A DNA stretch of 64,000 nucleotides from Acidimicrobiia bacterium (GCA_029263095.1 JAJCYA010000077.1:2874-66873); one strand, 5' to 3'. Positions 3,665 to 28,599 are shown, numbered from the stretch's first letter. A program made the numbers and translations. Notes: a model not told the origin generated them from the letters alone.

Positions 3665-5980
3665 TCAGTCCCCGAGTGCGATCGGACAGCCATCGCCGGC
3701 GGTGAGGGTGGCGGTCATCAGCCTGAGCCCGTCGGCGGCGATAGTCACGGTGCCCGTCGAGGCGTTGAGCGTTCCAACCAGCCGGCTGCCGTCGTTCTCC
3801 AGGAGCGTGATGCGGCCTCTGCGGAAGACGGCTCCGTCGATCGTGGCGGTGATGGCGCCGCTGTCGGCGAGCATCGCCGGCAGGAACTCGAGGGCTTCGG
3901 TCATGAGCGCAAACCCACCTATGGCCAGCTCTGTGTGTTGATAGCCGAATAGCAGTCCCACCACGCCGCTCATCCCGAACAACCCGAATTCCTCGTCGTA
4001 GGAGGTGAGGGGCGGCGTGGCCGCCCCCGCCGGGTTACCACCAACCGCAGCGAGGATGGCGCCGCCGAGAGCCGCCAGCTGGAAGTAGTCGGCCAGTTGG
4101 AATAGGGCGATACCCCGATACGGCCCGCCGGGCCGCGAAGCGCATGCCGTCACCGCTGCCCCGATGTCGCCTGCGATAGGCACGTCGTCGGAGTCCACCT
4201 GGAACTGGTAGGCGCCGAACAGCACATAGGTGAGGCCGGTCCCGACGCTCGCGGTGCCGAAAGCGGCGAGGGGCTGCCCATCGGCATCGGCGTGCGCCTC
4301 GAAAGTCAGCTCCTCAAGCGAGACATCATCGCCCGGTGTGAAGGTAAAGGAGACGGACCCGTCATCGATGGTTTGCAGCGTGGGTGTCACCGAGTCCGCA
4401 GACCCGGTGATCTCGACGGTCGCCCCCCGATACGGCTCTCCGGCAAGGTCCGTCACCGCGACTAGCCACTCGGTGGCGATGCCCGCTTCGGCGTGAATAG
4501 GCGGCGCCTGAATGCACAGGGCGCTGCGGGCAACCTCGGTGGCGAACGACTCGGCCCAATCCGTCGCGGAACCCTGTGATTCCAGCAGTGCGCCGGCGTC
4601 CCTGTCGGTATTGGGATAGGCGGTCAGGGTGCTCCCGGTCTGGTGCCGCACCCCCGCGATGTACACGTCACCGGCGAATCGGTCTCCCACGCCCCACAAC
4701 GAGACCAGGCTCCCGGGCCGGAGGGGCCACAGCGGGTCGAAGGCGTGTTCGACTATCGCATCGACGTCGGCGAGGGTGATCACGTCGGCCATCGGGAGCC
4801 GGGAGGTCAAGGTCCCGGCAACCAGCTCGGTCAGCCCGGAAGAGTCGGCGCCGTTCTCATCGACGATGCGATTGAGTAGCAGCGTGCGACAGGCGGGCTG
4901 CTCGACGGCGAAGGTGTCGTCGAGCACCGGCGCCTCGAACGCGACCGGTGGGAGCGACGCCGGGGCGGCACCCACCTCGACGGACGCTCCGCACGGGGCG
5001 TCGATCGGAATCGGGCTCAGCGGTGCCGGAGGCTCGCCGTCGAGCCATCCAAACAGCATGTGTGATCCCGGTGGGATAAACAGCGAGAACTCCCCGGTTC
5101 CGGTGATGACGGCGATGCTCCGGTGGCGGCCCGACACCGACACCAGGCGGACGCCCCCCGGACCCCCGATCGACCCCGAGACGAGTGCCGGTTCGTCGCA
5201 TCGGGTCATCGGGACCAGATTCGAGAACAACACGTCGTCGCCGAGGGAGATCAGCTGCACAGCGTCGGCCTCGGCGCCGGAGATGAACAGGTCGCGCCCG
5301 GTTAGCTCGCTCAGCGCGACCGGCTCGAGACCGCCGGATACCAGCAGCCCGGATTCGGTGACTGTCAGCACGCCTGCCGGACCGCTGTCGGCGGCATCCC
5401 CGTCGTCGCTGCCGATCTCATCTCCCAATTCGGCTTCCCACCCGGTGCCGAGTCCGATGAGGATCGGTGTCGCCGGATCAATGCCCGACGAGGTGACCCG
5501 CAGACGCACCACGGCGTCGTCGGCGACGATCAGCCGGTCCGAGTCGAGCCAGAGTCCGGGACCGGCGGCCACCCGGACCGCTCCCAGGCCGATGCCCGGT
5601 CCGTCGGCGTGCAGCACGATCAGATACTCGCCCTCAGCGGTGTCGGGAGGGATCGTCAAGGCGGTCTCTCCGACACCGGCAACGACGGTGGCGACGCTTC
5701 CATCGGGTCCGATCATCTCCAGCGTCCCGGCGAACGGCACCGACACGACGGTTTCGGCTCCGGGTGCGGCGACGGGTGGCTCGACACTCAACGCGGCCAG
5801 CCCTTCACCTCGGGGCCGGGCTTGGGCGAGCGGGGCAGTCGTGTCGCCCCGGGTTGTGGACGTCGGATCGACTTCGAGGGCCGGCTCCTCTGTCGAGGTG
5901 CACGCAGCAGCAGCCAGCATCGCCAGCGCCACCAGGGCTGTGGTGGCGCGCCTTGGCGATGCGATCAGCCGGCGATGCAC
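3665..5980 (-). CDS. Large secreted lipoprotein (~771 aa), function unknown
   Basis: GTG start gives MHRRLIASPRRATTALVALAMLAAAAC (lipobox LAAAC). The upstream 230 codons of the ORF are Arg-rich wrong-frame-like and overlap the upstream gene. Low-complexity Gly/Ala/Asp composition. Confidence 0.5.
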   Translation of the reverse strand: MHRRLIASPRRATTALVALAMLAAAACTSTEEPALEVDPTSTTRGDTTAPLAQARPRGEGLAALSVEPPVAAPGAETVVSVPFAGTLEMIGPDGSVATVVAGVGETALTIPPDTAEGEYLIVLHADGPGIGLGAVRVAAGPGLWLDSDRLIVADDAVVRLRVTSSGIDPATPILIGLGTGWEAELGDEIGSDDGDAADSGPAGVLTVTESGLLVSGGLEPVALSELTGRDLFISGAEADAVQLISLGDDVLFSNLVPMTRCDEPALVSGSIGGPGGVRLVSVSGRHRSIAVITGTGEFSLFIPPGSHMLFGWLDGEPPAPLSPIPIDAPCGASVEVGAAPASLPPVAFEAPVLDDTFAVEQPACRTLLLNRIVDENGADSSGLTELVAGTLTSRLPMADVITLADVDAIVEHAFDPLWPLRPGSLVSLWGVGDRFAGDVYIAGVRHQTGSTLTAYPNTDRDAGALLESQGSATDWAESFATEVARSALCIQAPPIHAEAGIATEWLVAVTDLAGEPYRGATVEITGSADSVTPTLQTIDDGSVSFTFTPGDDVSLEELTFEAHADADGQPLAAFGTASVGTGLTYVLFGAYQFQVDSDDVPIAGDIGAAVTACASRPGGPYRGIALFQLADYFQLAALGGAILAAVGGNPAGAATPPLTSYDEEFGLFGMSGVVGLLFGYQHTELAIGGFALMTEALEFLPAMLADSGAITATIDGAVFRRGRITLLENDGSRLVGTLNASTGTVTIAADGLRLMTATLTAGDGCPIALGD

Positions 5981-10517: not shown

Positions 10518-10877
10518 GTGGCAGCAAATCGGCGATGGCGGGACTACCGGACCCGGGGCGGAAGACGCCCGGTCAAGGAGTTTTTGGATGGCCTGTCTGA
10601 TTCGGATGCTGCGGCCGTCGTTGCCGGCATGAGAGATGTGCAGGTCAACGGCAATCGCGTGGCTCGTCACCTCGAGGGGGAGATCTACGAGCTGCGGGTT
10701 GCTGGCGACAGGCAGGCCTTCAGAGTGCTCTACGCCACCGAGGGTAAGGGGAATCAGATCCTTCTCGCGCTGGAGGCCTTCTCCAAGAAGACCCAGAAGA
10801 CGCCCAATCAGGCCATCCGGCTTGCCAAGCGGAGATTGACTGATTGGCGCTCCAGAGCGAGGAGCAATCGACCTTGA
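10518..10877 (+). CDS. RelE/ParE-superfamily toxin of the Gp49/HigB-like family
   Basis: 119 aa with VKEFLDGL..YELRV..FRVLYA..ILLALEAFSKKTQKTP, a toxin-first arrangement with a downstream XRE antitoxin. Confidence 0.6.
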   Translation: MAANRRWRDYRTRGGRRPVKEFLDGLSDSDAAAVVAGMRDVQVNGNRVARHLEGEIYELRVAGDRQAFRVLYATEGKGNQILLALEAFSKKTQKTPNQAIRLAKRRLTDWRSRARSNRP

Positions 10878-10942
10878 CATGTCGTTAGAGCGATATCATT
10901 ATTGATATGGCCCGATCGTGCCGAATACTGAGACGAGCTGCA

Positions 10943-11233
10943 ATGAACGAAGACTTCCTTGAAGAACTGATTGCCGAACGAAGCGGAGCCAATGAGCAGT
11001 TCGCCGAAAGGGTCGAAGCCGCGTTCCGGCGGCGCGAGCTCATACGCCAGCTCGCTGAGATTCGTACCTCTCTCTCGATCTCCCAGACTCGGCTCGCCGC
11101 ACTGATGGGTACGTCGCAATCTGCCGTGGCTCGCCTCGAGTCGGGAGATTCGGACGCACGTGCGTCCACTCTCGCCCGTTACGCCGCTGCACTCGGTCGT
11201 CGTATCGAGTTCCAAGTGGTCGAGGGCACCTAG
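10943..11233 (+). CDS. HTH XRE-family antitoxin (HigA-like)
   Basis: LAEIRTSLSISQTRLAALMGTSQSAVARLESG HTH. Start placed at MNEDFLEEL. Confidence 0.6.
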   Translation: MNEDFLEELIAERSGANEQFAERVEAAFRRRELIRQLAEIRTSLSISQTRLAALMGTSQSAVARLESGDSDARASTLARYAAALGRRIEFQVVEGT

Positions 11234-11391
11234 CTGCCGGGTACCAGAAGTGCGAGACGTACCGATCCCAAGCTCGAAGGCGGCTCCCTCCGTTTCGGTC
11301 TTCGCGGCGTAGAGGAACCGGCCCGGCCCAAACAGCAGTACCCTTACCCCTGCAGTCATACCGGACAAGCCGCAAGCCAGGGAGGCATCCA

Positions 11392-11589
11392 TTGGGAATC
11401 TTCGACAAGTTCAAGAAGAAGACCGGCGAACTCGCTGAGGAGCACGGCGACAAGGCAGAAGACGCCATAGACAAGGGCGCTGACTTTGCCGACGACAAGA
11501 CCGGCGGCAAGTACACCGACCAGATCGATACCGGCGCCGAGAAGGCGAAGGACTTTTTCGAGGGTGCCGCGGGCAACGACGACGAGTAG
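11392..11589 (+). CDS. MT0933-like (PF14013) small protein / CsbD-like
   Basis: MGIFDKFKKKTGELAEEHGDKAEDAIDKGADFADDKTGGKYTDQIDTGAEKAKDF matches the mycobacterial Rv0909/MT0933 family pattern. Confidence 0.55.
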   Translation: MGIFDKFKKKTGELAEEHGDKAEDAIDKGADFADDKTGGKYTDQIDTGAEKAKDFFEGAAGNDDE

Positions 11590-11665: not shown

Positions 11666-11863
11666 ATGCAGCAGACCGGAACCGTAAAGTTCTTCAACGA
11701 GCAGAAGGGCTTTGGCTTTATCACCTCTGCCGACGGCGGAGACGTATTCGTTCACATCTCCAACATCGTTGGCGGCGCCACAATCACTGAGGGCCAGGCC
11801 GTGGAATTCGAGACTGGTCCTGGTCGCAAAGGCCCGGAAGCCACCAACGTCAGGCCCGTCTAG
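11666..11863 (+). CDS. cspA: Cold-shock protein, CspA family
   Basis: [34 protein letters not shown] carries the RNP1/RNP2 motifs. SD ggagg lies upstream. Confidence 0.9.
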
Positions 11864-12127
11864 GTGGCCCAACGCGGACGGGAGGCGATGGCGAAGCGTG
11901 CTCGTGAACGCTCCCGCCAGGAGCGCAAAGACGCCAAGCGCGCCCAACGCCTCGCAGCATCCGCGGCTCCCAAGTCCACCGACGCACCCCAAGAGGATGC
12001 ACTCATGGAGGAGTTCCGGGTGCTGAGTGAGGGGCACGCGGCGGGACGGATCTCAGAAGAGGCCTACCGCCAGGAGCGCCATCGGATCTTTGTAGAGCTC
12101 GGTATCGAGACGGACGACGACGTCTAG
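11864..12127 (+). CDS. Hypothetical small charged protein downstream of cspA
   Basis: ORF only; possible internal ATG start at 11888 (MAKRARERS). No recognisable domain. Confidence 0.3.
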   Translation: MAQRGREAMAKRARERSRQERKDAKRAQRLAASAAPKSTDAPQEDALMEEFRVLSEGHAAGRISEEAYRQERHRIFVELGIETDDDV

Positions 12128-12136
12128 GAATGGTCT

Positions 12137-12390
12137 GATCACTCTCCCCTTTGGGGGGTGTCAAACGCCGCAGGCGTTTGGTGGGGGGTCTCTTCGAGCT
12201 TTCCCCCCCACCAGCGCGCGTTGCTCGCTGACTCCCCTTCCGAGGGGGAGTAGTTCCAGATTGGATCACTCTCCCCTTTGGGGGGAGTCGAACGCCGTAG
12301 GCGTATGGTGGGGGGTCTCTCTCTCAGCTTTCCCCCCCACCAGCTCGCTTTGCTCGCTGACTCCCCCTCCAAGGGGGAGTAGTTCAGAGT
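12137..12390. repeat. Two tandem copies (~127 bp each) of a structured G/C-tract-rich repeat element
   Basis: Unit: gatcactctcccctttgggggg.gtc.aacgccg.aggcgt.tggtggggggtctct...agctttcccccccaccagc...ttgctcgctgactcccc.tcc.agggggagtagttc. Three hairpins per unit (aaacgcc/ggcgttt; tggtgggggg/cccccccacca; actcccc/ggggagt). Lies between convergent genes. Confidence 0.75.
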
Positions 12391-12402
12391 GTCGCGGCCG
12401 AT

Positions 12403-12588
12403 CTAGCCCGAATCGGACCCAGAGCCGCCTGAGGAGTCGGAGCCTTCGCCACCAGATCCCGAGGACGGATCACTCTCATCGCCACTGCGGTAGACCGAGG
12501 TCTGCTTCTTGCTGAGGCGGGTGTGCTTGGAGCACGCAACAACCGGGCCCGGCTTCCATTTGCCGTCGCAGAAGTGGCTGGTCGTCAT
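12403..12588 (-). CDS. Small protein (61 aa) with a Ser/Gly/Asp-rich acidic tail
   Basis: Strong SD (GGGAGAccacc-ATG). MTTSHFCDGKWKPGPVVACSKHTRLSKKQTSVYRSGDESDPSSGSGGEGSDSSGGSGSDSG; no family recognised. Confidence 0.4.
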   Translation of the reverse strand: MTTSHFCDGKWKPGPVVACSKHTRLSKKQTSVYRSGDESDPSSGSGGEGSDSSGGSGSDSG

Positions 12589-25021: not shown

Positions 25022-25031
25022 GGTGCCACCC

Positions 25032-25853
25032 ATGGCTTATGCAGCCGGAGTAGATGTCGGCTCCACCCAGACGAAGGCCGTGATCATCGGCGAGGACCGC
25101 CGTATCGCGGGGCGTTCACTGCTGGACACGGGGGCCAACGTCATAAAGGCGGCGGAATCCGCCTATATGGCCGCGCTCGAACAAGGGGGGATCGAGGAGA
25201 GAGAGGTCGAGTACGTCGTCGGGACCGGATACGGACGATATCGGGTCACCTTCGGAAACACCCAGGTCACCGAGATCAGCTGCCACGGCCGGGGAGCAGT
25301 CCATCTGTTTCCCAACACCAGGACCGTTGTCGACATGGGGGGACAGGACACCAAGGCGATCAGCGTCAGTCCCCAGGGTGAGATCACCGACTTCTGTATG
25401 AATGACAAGTGTGCCGCCGGAACCGGCCGCTTTCTAGGAGCCGCAGCAGCGGCTCTCGACATTCCCCTCGACGATCTGGGATCGATCTCGCTGAAGTCGG
25501 ACAGACCCATCAAGATCAGCACCACTTGTACGGTCTTCGCCGAATCCGAGGTGCTCGCCTGGATCGGCAAGGGCAAGAAGATCGAGGACATCCTGTCTGG
25601 GGTGCACAAGTCGATTGCCTCCAGATCGGCCGCTCTGATGCGGAGGGTGGGGATCGACGATGAAGTGACCTTTACCGGCGGCGTTTCGCGCAACGAAGGC
25701 ATGGTGAAGGCACTCGAGGACAGGCTCGGTACTCGACTCAACATCAGCGACGATTGCCACTACATGGGGGCACTCGGCGCCGCCCTGTTTGCACTCGATC
25801 ACGTTGTTGCCGGCCGGGCTCCGGCCGCCGAGGGAGCGGGGGTCTCGGCGTGA
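25032..25853 (+). CDS. BadF/BadG/BcrA/BcrD/HgdC-type ATPase (activase) subunit
   Basis: [12 protein letters not shown] (actin-fold phosphate-1) and [11 protein letters not shown] (cluster-binding Cys motif). Confidence 0.75.
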
Positions 25854-26662
25854 TGGTCACAGCAGGGCTCGATGTCGGATCGACGTATACGAAGGTCGTG
25901 ATCCAGGCCGGTGACGGTTCGATCCTCGGCAATGCTGCGGCTCCCACGGGTTTTCGACTGCGGGAGCAGGCCAGGGACACCTACGACAGGGCACTCGCCG
26001 AGGCAGGAATCTCCGAATCCGATGTCGACTACGTGGTGGCCACCGGGATCGGTCGTCACCAGGTCGACTTCAAGGATCTCCACGTGACCGACCTCACCGC
26101 CAGCGCCAGGGGAGCGCACTTCCTGTTCCCGGAGACCCGGACCATTCTCGATATCGGCGGTCAGACGATGAAGGCCAGCCGGATCGACGGTGTTGCCAAG
26201 GTTCTCTCATTCCGCCTCAACGACAAGTGTGCCGCCGGGACCGGCGCCTTCCTGGAGAAGACCGCTCGCTACATGGGGTACACGACCAGCGAGATCGGTC
26301 CGCTGATGTCGACTTCGAAGGATCCGGTGCCGATATCGGGGGTTTGTGCGGTGTTTGCCGAGTCCGAGGTGATCAACCACCTATCTCTGGGGACTGCACC
26401 CGCCGACATCATGCAGGGTGCGATCGAATCGCTGACCAATCGGGCGGTTCAACTGATGAAGCGCGTCAGGGCCGAACCCGAACACACGCTTGTCGGGGGC
26501 ATCCTCAGGTTCGAGACCATGGGTCGCTCCGTGAGTGAGACTCTGGGGGCAGATGTCAATGTCCCTGATCCCGAAATGGTTCAGTTCGTCTCGGCCCTGG
26601 GGTGCGCCATCCTCGCCCGACTCCGGTTGGAGAAGCTGGCGGCGACGGGAGCAGCGGTGTGA
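25853..26662 (+). CDS. Second BadF/BadG/BcrA/BcrD/HgdC-type ATPase subunit
   Basis: AGLDVGSTYTKV and [11 protein letters not shown] motifs. TGATG overlap with the upstream gene. Two ATPase genes is the BCR signature; dehydratases have one. Confidence 0.75.
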   Translation: MVTAGLDVGSTYTKVVIQAGDGSILGNAAAPTGFRLREQARDTYDRALAEAGISESDVDYVVATGIGRHQVDFKDLHVTDLTASARGAHFLFPETRTILDIGGQTMKASRIDGVAKVLSFRLNDKCAAGTGAFLEKTARYMGYTTSEIGPLMSTSKDPVPISGVCAVFAESEVINHLSLGTAPADIMQGAIESLTNRAVQLMKRVRAEPEHTLVGGILRFETMGRSVSETLGADVNVPDPEMVQFVSALGCAILARLRLEKLAATGAAV

Positions 26663-26910
26663 GCACGCCGGTCCGTATCACCGGATTGACTATCGGCGAT
26701 GCCCCCGAGCTGGCTGCGGGCGGTTGGGTCCGGCGCGCCGTGACCGATGCCCAACGAGCCGAGGAGCAGGGACAGCTCTATTCGGAGATCGGCTTCGAAG
26801 TGATGCTGCGTCCCCTCGATGACTCGAGTTACGCCGAAGACTGCACCGGTTGCGCCGCGGGGCCGACTTCGGTCATTGTCTACACCCGTAGGCCCCAAGC
26901 CGCCTCCTAA
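26659..26910 (+). CDS. Hypothetical small protein with a single CxxC, translationally coupled to the ATPase gene
   Basis: GTG start overlaps the upstream TGA (GTGA). Not a canonical 2x[4Fe-4S] ferredoxin. Confidence 0.3.
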   Translation: MSTPVRITGLTIGDAPELAAGGWVRRAVTDAQRAEEQGQLYSEIGFEVMLRPLDDSSYAEDCTGCAAGPTSVIVYTRRPQAAS

Positions 26911-26936
26911 TCGCTCCTCTCTCGGGAGGGGATTCT

Positions 26937-27120
26937 GATCACTCTCCCCTTTGGGTGTCGGGTTGCGCGACAGGGCCGAAGATCGTTGGCTTCTTCTGGA
27001 CTACTCCCCCTCGGAGGGGGAGACAGCGAGCGAAGCGAGCTGGTGGGGGGGAAAGCTCAAGAACCCCCCATCCCCCTCGTCGCTGCGCTCCTCACGGACT
27101 TCCCCCACAAGGGGGGAAAG
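26937..27120. repeat. Third, rearranged copy of the 12.1-kb repeat family
   Basis: Shares the 5' end tgatcactctcccctttggg, then carries the reverse complement of the unit's 3' half (ctactccccctcggagggggag..gctggtgggggggaaagct). Flanked by gattct on both sides; between convergent genes. Confidence 0.65.
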
Positions 27121-27139
27121 ATTCTCCTTCTTGTGCCCG

Positions 27140-27844
27140 CTACAGGTATTGGCCGCCGTCTACTCGGATCACCTGGCCCGTGATGTGGCGGGCGGCATCG
27201 GACACCAAGAAGGCGATCACGTCGGCGACGTCTTCGGGCTCACCGAGGCGCCCCAGACTGCTGTCTTTGCGAGCCGCCTCTTGGATCTCATCGGGTAATG
27301 ACACCGTCATTGGGGTGCGGATCATGCCGGGGGCGACGACGTTTACCCGAATCCCAAAGTGGCCGAGCTCTCGGGCCAGCGATTTGGCCAACCCGTGGAG
27401 ACCGGCCTTGGAGGCGGCATAGTTGGCCTGGCCGAACTTGCCACGTTCTCCGTTGATCGAAGACACGAAGACGATGGCGCCGCCGCCTGCTTGCCGCATC
27501 AGGGGTGTCGCCGCTCGGCTGAGATAGAAGCCCGAATCGAGGTTGACGGCCAGCACAGATTTCCAGTCGGAGTCGTCCATCTTCCACGACACACCATCTC
27601 TGGTGATACCGGCAGCATGGACCAGGACGTCCAGGCCTCCAAACGCCTCGGCGGCGGCACTCACCGCATCGGCGCATGCAGCGGGGTCGGCCAGGTCGCA
27701 AGCGAACATCTCGTCGGCACCGGGTGGTGGGTCGTTTGTCTGAATGTCGGCGACGGCCACTAGGTGGTCCGTCTGTGCCAACGCCGCCACCGTTGCGCGG
27801 CCGATTCCTCCGCTCCCGCCACTGACCAGTGCTCTGACACTCAT
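27140..27844 (-). CDS. SDR-family oxidoreductase (3-oxoacyl/3-hydroxyacyl reductase-like)
   Basis: SGGSGGIGRA glycine motif, the NYAASKAG catalytic YxxxK, and the C-terminal ITGQVIRVDGG. Confidence 0.7.
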   Translation of the reverse strand: MSVRALVSGGSGGIGRATVAALAQTDHLVAVADIQTNDPPPGADEMFACDLADPAACADAVSAAAEAFGGLDVLVHAAGITRDGVSWKMDDSDWKSVLAVNLDSGFYLSRAATPLMRQAGGGAIVFVSSINGERGKFGQANYAASKAGLHGLAKSLARELGHFGIRVNVVAPGMIRTPMTVSLPDEIQEAARKDSSLGRLGEPEDVADVIAFLVSDAARHITGQVIRVDGGQYL

Positions 27845-28599
27845 GCATTTCTCCACTCTGGGTTGCGCTTGTCGAGAAACGCTTGGATTCCCTCGACTCC
27901 GTCGTGGAGCTCGAGAAGCTCCTCGAGGTAGATGCGCTCGGCATTGCTGAGGCGGTCCTCGATTGCCTTGCGCTGTGGCTCCCGTACCGCTCGGGTGGCC
28001 AAGCGCAGCGAAGCGGCCGAGCGAGGTGCGAAGTGCTCGGCTATGAACCCGTCCACCGTCTCATCGAGGCTGTTCGATGGGGCGAGCGCGTTGACGATCC
28101 CGAGTCTGAAGGCCTCGGTTGCGGTCAAGTCTCGACCGGTGAGGAGCACGTCCTCGGCGGCGCGTCCTGTCAAGAGGGCGGTCGCCGCCGGGGCGAGCAC
28201 CCCGAGGCGAATCTCGGGCGAGGCGAGCACGGCGTCTTCCTCGGCAATGACGATGCCGCACGCTAGGGCCAATTCCAGCCCTCCGCCCAAGCACCGGCCC
28301 TGGACCCCGGCCAGCGTCGGGTATGGGAAGCCGACCAGGTCGCGTACCACGCCGCCGATCGCCTCCAACATCTGCGGTGCTTGCTCGGGCAGGTGCTCCT
28401 CGACGCTGGCGCCGAACGAGAAGTGCTTCCCGGCCCCCCGCAGCACCAGCACCTTGCCGCGCTCATCGGCTGCTGCTGTCGCGATGGCGGGTCGTAGCTC
28501 GGCACATAGAGCCAGGTCGATCACATTGCCGGGCGGTGAGTCCATCGTGATCGTCTGGACACCGCCGTCGGGTGACGCAGTGTGGAGCACGATGGCCAT
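27841..28599 (-). CDS. dch: Enoyl-CoA hydratase (crotonase fold), candidate cyclohexa-1,5-diene-1-carbonyl-CoA hydratase (Dch)
   Basis: Crotonase motifs (GAGKHFSFGASV, GGGLELALACG) in a ~28-kDa protein placed between oah and an SDR. Dch identity is contextual. Confidence 0.6.
   Translation of the reverse strand: MAIVLHTASPDGGVQTITMDSPPGNVIDLALCAELRPAIATAAADERGKVLVLRGAGKHFSFGASVEEHLPEQAPQMLEAIGGVVRDLVGFPYPTLAGVQGRCLGGGLELALACGIVIAEEDAVLASPEIRLGVLAPAATALLTGRAAEDVLLTGRDLTATEAFRLGIVNALAPSNSLDETVDGFIAEHFAPRSAASLRLATRAVREPQRKAIEDRLSNAERIYLEELLELHDGVEGIQAFLDKRNPEWRNA

Follow-up and report, generated by a model that had tools for sequence, protein, structure and literature searches.

Repetitive extragenic palindromic (REP) sequences and the REP doublets forming hairpins (REPINs) are best known from Proteobacteria. 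Together with the bacterial interspersed mosaic elements (BIMEs) they comprise imperfect palindromes of only 21-65 nt which are multi-copy and lie largely outside of genes, where they occur as singles, as inverted dimers that fold into long hairpins, and in mosaic clusters. A short conserved motif marks the 5' foot of the hairpin, two subtypes (the Y and Z units) pair in the dimers of BIMEs, copies are kept in the orthologous intergenic regions of related genomes, and the repeats are targets of IS3/IS481-like and IS110-family insertion sequences (ISs) and show no target-site duplication. Here we describe a repeat family that is like them in all of these respects, with L- and R-type units pairing in the place of Y and Z. 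It is found in a stretch of 64,000 nucleotides from an Acidimicrobiia bacterium (GCA_029263095.1, JAJCYA010000077.1:2874-66873), to which we refer as the window, and its unit is a 53-nt DNA repeat with two hairpins, which we call the arm. The family is multi-copy in several related genomes and intergenic, its members lying downstream of genes. In our view the arms are likely to be DNA repeats of the extragenic palindromic kind, specific to one lineage and behaving like REP, BIME and REPIN elements. This is the favoured one of the four readings weighed below, and it agrees with the REP/BIME- or miniature inverted-repeat transposable element (MITE)-like nature proposed in an earlier reading of the window from the sequence alone (the sequence-only reading): the repeats are multi-copy, extragenic and palindromic, occur as singles, pairs and arrays, and are targets of ISs. 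In Rfam and the searchable literature we found no description of the family, while the kind of element is familiar; literature searches returned nothing relevant for the consensus sequence, for REP sequences or REP-associated tyrosine transposases (RAYTs) in Actinobacteria, or for repeats in Acidimicrobiia.

The sequence-only reading had described a structured repeat with a unit of about 127 bp. The family is real: region 12134-12390 consists of two adjoining units of 127 and 130 nt which are 88-93% identical, the window contains the 19-mer GATCACTCTCCCCTTTGGG at three positions (12137, 12264 and 26937; 0.03 matches expected by chance), and G/C-tract hairpins far exceed chance (4 versus 0.11 expected, and 2 versus 0). 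The two tandem copies thus stand, but the true repeating unit is the 53-nt arm and not the 127-bp block, each unit being an L-type arm followed by a spacer of 15-17 nt and an inverted R-type arm. The anatomy of the arm was established by comparing every place bearing the 19-mer, from which 75 matches were extracted in register. In 5' to 3' direction it consists of the motif (TYK)GAWCA, hairpin A (CTCTCCCC-TTT-GGGGGGAG, a 9-bp stem including one T.G pair), the trinucleotide TCA, hairpin B (a stem of 6-8 bp with a 3-nt GNA loop) and the tail TGGTGGGGGG; the arm thereby ends in a G-tract, which is followed by T/C-rich sequence lacking a T-run. The 5' flank of hairpin A reads T-Y-K-G-A-N-C-A, with A in 100% of the arms at position -4, C in 85% at -2 and A in 99% at -1. 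There are at least three types of arms, namely the L-type, whose hairpin B is palindromic (AATCGGCC-GCA-GGCCGATT, for example), the R-type with CAGC-GA-GCGAAGC-GA-GCTG at the hairpin B position, and a third type with the hairpin CTTCCCCCC-TTGT-GGGGGAAG.

A covariance model (R1) built from 120 distinct arms and run unfiltered over the whole window detected exactly six arms and nothing else (Table 1), four of them at the first locus and two at the second. For both units of the first locus, a long branched hairpin is predicted whichever strand is folded and whether it is taken as RNA or as DNA (z-scores of -4.5 to -5.5). Within unit 1, the C-tract of arm 2, whose B region is a variant of GCGAGCGAAGCGAGC, is predicted to pair with the G-tract of arm 1. 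The three G/C-tract hairpins originally assigned to each unit correspond to hairpin B, to this pairing of the G- and C-tracts across the spacer, and to hairpin A of the partner arm, while hairpin A of the first arm had been missed. The earlier conclusion that the locus is not a CRISPR array holds: the units are inverted pairs with only 6 nt between them, and their cores, 15-17 nt long, are mutually related.

The structure of the arm is under selection. Hairpin A is invariant over the 120 distinct arms, its T.G pair being kept in 119 of them, and because of this invariance it is silent on covariation, either way. Hairpin B is 98% paired in the same set, and compensatory changes (101 cells) affect five of the eight base pairs; none of 500 shuffles reached the observed values, and the signal collapsed when the partner columns were slid. 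Hairpin B is thus under selection for pairing. Its loop follows the pattern GNA in 105 of the 120 arms (GCA in 41, GGA in 24, GTA in 23 and GAA in 17) and is closed by a C-G pair, and R-type arms contain the classic GCGAAGC. Loops of the type d(GNA) closed by C-G form exceptionally stable DNA minihairpins (PMC3201870, PMC13037366). Because the G.T pairs in hairpin B outnumber the A.C mismatches (24 versus 4, counts which are not phylogenetically independent), folding appears to take place on one strand, and the top strand seems to be the functional, folding one. In several otherwise normal arms (L032 at about 1075-1170, as well as L039, L040, L015 and L037; labels of this kind denote the fetched loci) a conserved module of about 95 nt (...GGTACGAGACAGCGCCGCCGTAGGCGGCTCGAACATGCGGAGGCACTTCGGGGCCGAGTAGGACCCGAAGTGTCGGAGCTAGACACG...) occupies precisely the hairpin B loop. 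This module, for which Rfam gives no match at the gathering threshold, may be a nested element.

In an exact-word scan for which each species was represented by one genome, four metagenome-assembled genomes (MAGs) contained the 19-mer repeatedly and others had single matches only; the 22-mer was present in at least 120 metagenome contigs. An nhmmer profile of the arm recovered 379 arms in 890 kb of fetched loci, an upper bound with respect to density. The outcome by which the sequence-only reading would have been refuted, a motif restricted to the two window loci and lacking conserved structure, is clearly not what was observed. There was no exact match among viral contigs, and the idea of a phage origin was therefore dropped. 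The single matches in Bacteroidales (three, all inside one conserved rpoB/rpoC-type gene region) and in Stieleria (one) were treated as chance occurrences because none of them has the remainder of the arm. According to their titles, the four MAGs belong to Acidobacteria (JACZWZ01), Kiloniellaceae (CAXMOL01) and Acidimicrobiia (JAZGIX01 and JAZGCP01), which would suggest horizontal transfer across phyla. This was rejected: in an all-against-all BLAST the four MAGs and the window share long syntenic coding DNA with 75-90% nucleotide identity, so they represent one clade with inconsistent, unreliable labels. Judged from these alignments, at least two of the four labels must be wrong, or the bins must be mixed. 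The hosts are uncultured high-GC bacteria, probably of the Acidimicrobiia.

Among 107 classifiable arm clusters, 50 (47%) lie between convergent, 52 (49%) between co-directional and only five (5%) between divergent genes, compared with a background of 22%, 54% and 24%, respectively, for intergenic gaps; about 95% of the clusters are thus downstream of at least one gene. The repeats had been described as always situated between convergent genes, which applies to both loci in the window but not to the family as a whole. Convergence is solid at locus 2, where orf102 is conserved in L138, and at locus 1 hangs on a probable 61-aa open reading frame (ORF) with a GC content at third codon positions (GC3) of 0.77 that has no homologue among the fetched loci or in Pfam. 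Arms are closer to the upstream stop codon (median 44 nt) than to the next start codon (median 98 nt). Their direction relative to transcription in co-directional gaps shows no bias, neither overall (52 versus 45) nor for single arms (12 versus 12). The family shuns promoter-only regions and is indifferent to the direction of transcription, and because of this combined pattern of gene context and orientation a DNA-level element fits better than an RNA gene. Net arm orientation tracks the G-rich strand of the contig (38-39 loci versus 12, p ~3e-4; 400 nt around the arms masked and homologous loci counted once). Arm orientation may respect replication direction, which is confounded with gene strand. 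Arms stand alone in 95 clusters and form pairs in others ('><' in 33, '<<' in 25, '<>' in 13), arrays comprise as many as nine of them, and some lie nested inside one another.

Gene calls overlap with arms in five of 112 clusters. Three of these are weak calls, and the one strong call, in L107, is a spurious N-terminal extension translating arms: at 366-1973 on the minus strand, arms are read in frame (...FWITLPFGGSQSAVGRLVGG...). Read-through of arms is likely a source of mis-annotated start sites in these genomes. Directly beside arms, short tandem heptamers (ACTGGCT/ACTGGTT, CAGTCGY, GGGAAAC) occur in L011 (about 110-230), L025 (about 1000-1180), L010 (about 4310-4350), L028 and the 3' flank of L040.

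Related genomes do not agree in how many arms, and of which type, an orthologous intergenic region contains. The orthologous region of L013 and L054, for example, has four arms in one and none in the other, L024 and L054 carry different hairpin B subtypes at the same site, and additional cases were seen. Orthologous intergenic sites thus gain, lose and swap arms. The arms are also hit by ISs (Table 1). Two different IS481-like elements in L074 and L150, whose transposases are only 25% identical to each other, occupy an identical position in the apex of hairpin A, which is split according to the scheme ...CTCCCCCC-ANA-GGG / IS / CCC-TTT-GGGGGGAG..., and an IS110-family element is located in the core of a '> <' pair in L115. 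Since two different ISs are found at the same position of hairpin A, the arm is an IS target and not an IS end. REP sequences of E. coli are similarly insertion targets, in their case for IS1397 and IS621. The sequences flanking the ISs in L074 and L150 are inverted and not direct repeats (AAA or ATA on one side, TTT on the other), which is not explained by a simple duplication.

The second locus in the window is a derivative of a larger composite element. A composite of about 360 nt recurs in many loci, in the order outer module, L-type arm, core of about 170 nt, R-type arm and second outer module. In an alignment, the outer modules match the left and the right inverted end of the L074 IS at roughly 80% of about 31 positions (visual count) and have kept the left/right asymmetry of that IS; because of this alignment the composite is best read as a MITE derived from an IS481-like element of the L074 type. 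Like IS-derived MITEs (e.g. Correia or ERIC-like elements) it is non-coding and multi-copy, with IS-homologous ends and a conserved core; the 53-nt arms and the 127-bp pairs are unlike MITEs in that they have neither IS-derived ends nor a target duplication. In 14 of 27 cases by our own count, the right end of the composite adjoins another arm at the 3' half of its hairpin A. The composite element at locus 2 likewise starts within the apex of the split arm's hairpin A, and L138, which is syntenic with this locus (flanks 78-80% identical), carries a full composite at exactly the same site and in the same orientation. From this comparison, locus 2 is a shortened composite that appears to be lodged in the hairpin A apex of another arm. 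The sequence-only reading had taken it for a rearranged copy of the tandem unit with its 3' half inverted. The 3' halves of the tandem units do find an 86-94% complementary stretch at 26995-27069, but the locus consists of an arm pair in the orientation opposite to that of locus 1, placed after a split half-hairpin and an IS-derived module. The hexamer GATTCT is present on both sides, as had been noted (26931-26936 and 27120-27125), and belongs to the arms' own TTCTGAWC terminus and not to a target-site duplication. Arm 6 was also considered as a decayed L-type arm, which was rejected since it represents a separate conserved subtype with 94-98% identical copies in L056, L127, L097, L004 and L009. 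The core of about 170 nt is conserved across composites (L001, L022, L030, L031, L047, L050, L138), contains repeated CGTCTTGTRKG motifs and has no Rfam match.

The closest family in Rfam is whalefall-1 (RF01762), which is about 55 nt long, is known only from uncultured marine material and was rated as certainly an RNA by Weinberg et al. 2010 (PMC2864571). Whalefall-1 and the arms have in common a CUCCCC/GGGGAG hairpin, a CA linker, a covarying second hairpin and a G-rich 3' tail (GGGUGAGG versus GGUGGGGGG), and arms recurrently match the RF01762 model over its full length, always on the top strand. Together with the strong covariation of hairpin B and the tolerance of G.T pairs on one strand only, this would fit small structured RNA genes related to whalefall-1 whose hairpins act in the transcript, and small RNAs had also been among the original suggestions for the repeats. 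The matches, however, reach only 15.3, 16.6 and 13.2 bits compared with a gathering threshold of 37 (no Rfam family passes its gathering threshold in the window or in 15 loci), and the likeness in sequence is limited to hairpin 1; whalefall-1 has tetraloops (UCGG, UUGG, CUUG) in place of TTT and GNA, a different 5' motif (GU[AG]U), and pairs of the type '< >' in contrast to the mostly '> <' pairs of arms, is annotated as a small RNA (sRNA), and the flanks on contig wf1_Contig538 are AT-rich. In addition, arms show no preferred orientation relative to neighbouring genes, both strands fold equally well, no promoter- or terminator-like signals flank the copies in the window or lie within them, and arrays, inverted pairs, nesting and ISs inside arms at recurrent positions all speak against RNA genes. 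Even the whalefall-1 seed resembles DNA repeats: its 16 sequences fall into two subtypes, members of which lie in inverted pairs on a shared contig, separated by 33-50 nt, and the foot of the hairpin bears a GU[AG]U (PMC2864571, supplementary file 175). We therefore hold a role of the arms as sRNA genes to be very improbable, and the whalefall-1 motif may also be a REP-type DNA repeat and not an sRNA. A bolder proposition is that arms and whalefall-1 together represent a wider class, so far undescribed, of G-tailed DNA repeats with bipartite hairpins in unrelated marine bacteria; such repeats would be read as single-stranded DNA (GNA-triloop minihairpins, a wobble pair on one strand) by a non-canonical, non-GT[AG]G enzyme; this we think unlikely.

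The preference for gene 3' ends described above raises the possibility that the repeats are mainly bidirectional terminators or stabilizers of mRNA 3' ends, spread by host selection for that role. Convergent gaps are twofold enriched and divergent gaps fivefold depleted, arms are close to the upstream stop codon, the hairpins are stable on both strands, and REP elements have been reported to affect mRNA stability and termination (PMC6006769). The same positional bias, however, would be expected under purifying selection on any inserted element. Moreover, no T/U tract follows the hairpins and no T-tailed terminator-like site is present within the repeats at either window locus, asymmetric single arms are randomly oriented with respect to transcription, and arrays of up to nine arms as well as nested arms are not expected for such a function. 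The invariance of hairpin A and the conservation of G and A in the hairpin B loop, with the middle position being free, rather point to sequence-specific recognition than to generic stem stability. Termination or stabilization as the primary role of the repeats is thus improbable. A classical MITE nature of the 127-bp units, in which case a DDE-transposase IS with arms as its terminal inverted repeats would move them by cut-and-paste with target-site duplication, is quite improbable as well. In its favour, the arms of a unit are inverted, about 53 nt long and distinguishable as left and right types, transposase genes of the rve family (IS481-like) are bracketed by arms in L074 and L150, and the larger composite has ends homologous to the L074 IS. 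In these two loci, however, the arms face away from the IS ('< IS >'), which has its own unrelated TGT... ends, and single arms and head-to-tail arrays outnumber inverted pairs. Target-site duplications, which the sequence-only reading had proposed to look for, were not found: flanking direct repeats at 74 pair boundaries were no longer than in shuffled controls, and the GATTCT flanks of locus 2 are internal to arms. No autonomous IS having arms (TTCTGAWCACTCTCCCC... ends) as its termini was found either.

This leaves REP-like DNA repeats as the favoured interpretation. As the most probable mechanism, arms would then lack autonomy and be copied by an enzyme whose gene lies elsewhere in the genome; this enzyme would read the top strand as single-stranded DNA hairpins in the way RAYT or IS200-type Y1 enzymes do. 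Copies would survive only where they are harmless, that is at the 3' ends of genes, and there the hairpins may secondarily stabilize transcripts or bring them to an end. IS200/IS605-derived palindrome-associated elements have subterminal hairpins, need neither inverted ends nor a duplication, are strand-specific relative to replication and occur in genomes with TnpA/TnpB. The hairpins of arms and their lack of a duplication are consistent with such elements, as is the orientation along the G-rich strand, which is confounded with gene strand; no TnpA-like ORF was found in 954 kb. BOX elements of Streptococcus pneumoniae are also modular, combining a small set of short modules whose number and order vary, fold strongly, are intergenic and do not have a transposase of their own; in contrast to arms, which occur both ways and nested, they follow the order A-B(n)-C in one orientation, and their sequence and host are unrelated.

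Several observations weigh against a REP-like nature of the arms. By definition, REP sequences carry GTAG or GTGG 0-2 nt 5' of the hairpin foot (PMC6006769), whereas the foot motif of arms is GAWCA; a GGTGG is present, but 3' of hairpin B and thus on the wrong side for a REP tetranucleotide. Arms further differ from REP sequences in having two hairpins and a G-tract per unit instead of one hairpin, a conserved GNA triloop in hairpin B, and a high-GC, probably Acidimicrobiia host. A six-frame regular-expression search of 175 sequences (954 kb of repeat-bearing sequence) revealed no ORF with an HUH/Y1 motif, and because no RAYT/Y1 gene was found there and GT[AG]G is absent we do not file the family as a member of the RAYT-REP system but only as REP-like in its working. 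Genes adjoining arms are ordinary housekeeping genes: clustering of 844 predicted proteins gave no other recurrent neighbour family, and the ten genes located between two arms comprise seven housekeeping genes, three IS transposases and no Y1 gene. No clean empty or filled site was recovered among the orthologous pairs, in which the intergenic flanks are too diverged to fix boundaries. The near-identity of arms across genomes could also stem from host selection instead of copying. The strand bias is inseparable from the majority gene strand. Finally, the loci were picked by exact consensus words, so that the density, uniformity and conservation of arms are overestimated and represent upper bounds, and gene calls come from a simple home-made gene finder based on codon usage, which under-calls small genes.

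Other features were recorded around the two window loci. At locus 1, the 87-aa ORF upstream of the repeats is preceded by a cold-shock protein gene (11666-11863), and further upstream (10518-11589) lie a Gp49-like toxin/HTH antitoxin pair, which has a homologue with 74% nucleotide identity in the arm-bearing L109, and an MT0933-like antitoxin gene. Just past unit 2, at 12386-12420 and overlapping the stop codon of the 61-aa ORF, the sequence AGTGTCGCGGCCGATCTAGCCCGAATCGG loosely resembles the IS481-like outer module GGTGATCTGTCGCGGTTAGTGCCCGACGG, which may be a relic or coincidence. Ahead of orf102 at locus 2 there are two adjacent BcrAD/BadFG-type ATPase genes (25023-26662) sharing a conserved stretch of 44 nt; the assignment comes from Pfam for the second and from inspection of the sequence for the first. 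A direct repeat of 175 nt (156-663; two copies, 93% identity, 333 nt apart) is unrelated to the arms.

Table 1. Positions of arms and associated features in the window and in selected related loci (R1, covariance model of the arm).
Sequence	Positions	Strand	Feature	Remarks
Window	11864-12127	+	Upstream flanking ORF, 87 aa	No Pfam match; GC3 0.74; stop 8 nt before arm 1
Window	12136-12188	+	Arm 1, L-type	R1 74.4 bits, E 5e-16
Window	12141-12161		Hairpin A of arm 1	
Window	12163-12179		Hairpin B of arm 1	Loop GCA at 12170-12172
Window	12180-12188		G-tract of arm 1	
Window	12189-12203		Spacer (core) of unit 1	15 nt
Window	12204-12256	-	Arm 2, R-type, inverted relative to arm 1	R1 43.0 bits, E 2e-8
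Window	12257-12262		Linker between units	6 nt
Window	12263-12315	+	Arm 3, L-type	Hairpin B loop GTA; R1 71.5 bits, E 2.5e-15
Window	12316-12332		Spacer of unit 2	17 nt
Window	12333-12385	-	Arm 4, R-type, inverted partner of arm 3	R1 52.6 bits, E 9e-11
Window	12403-12588	-	Probable ORF converging on the repeats, 61 aa	GC3 0.77; plausible ribosome-binding site
Window	26602-26910	+	orf102, conserved small gene	Ends 26 nt before the repeat; 69% aa identity to syntenic ORF in L138
Window	26937-26955	+	Split arm, 5' portion	GATCA, 5' strand of hairpin A, loop and GGG (the 19-mer signature)
Window	26953-26997	+	Outer module, GGGTGTCGGGTTGCGCGACAGGGCC...	Homologous to the IS481-like terminal inverted repeat (L074) and to outer ends of the ~360-nt composites
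Window	26998-27050	+	Arm 5, R-type	Inverted 3' half of the sequence-only reading; R1 43.8 bits, E 1.3e-8
Window	27051-27063		Spacer, 13 nt	Orthologous L138 element has the ~170-nt core here
Window	27064-27124	-	Arm 6, third subtype	Hairpin CTTCCCCCC-TTGT-GGGGGAAG; R1 20.6 bits, E 0.005
Window	27140-27856	-	Short-chain dehydrogenase gene	Converging on the repeat; no record in an exact-protein search
Window	12314-12382	-	RF01762 match	Below threshold
L138	1874-1925	-	RF01762 match	Below threshold
L022	1768-1820	+	RF01762 match	Below threshold
L074	593-1564	+	IS481-like (rve) element	In hairpin A apex
L150	3341-4492	-	Different IS481-like (rve) element	Identical position in hairpin A apex
L115	501-1616	+	IS110-family element	In core of '> <' pair

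The arm family changes no major paradigm, but it is of use in several ways. Words of 19 to 22 nt from the arm are a practical marker by which the contigs of one clade can be retrieved across metagenomes, and their use exposed the inconsistent phylum labels of MAGs; many arms are located at contig ends, which indicates that assemblies break there. The likeness between arms and whalefall-1 raises the possibility that Rfam lists at least one DNA repeat as an 'sRNA'. If arms and whalefall-1 did belong to one class, REPIN-like replicators would extend to the Actinobacteria and an RNA family of Rfam would have to be reclassified as a DNA element. With its covariation, its DNA-type GNA triloop and its strand bias, the arm family offers a tractable case for asking what copies such repeats where the GT[AG]G/RAYT signature is lacking.

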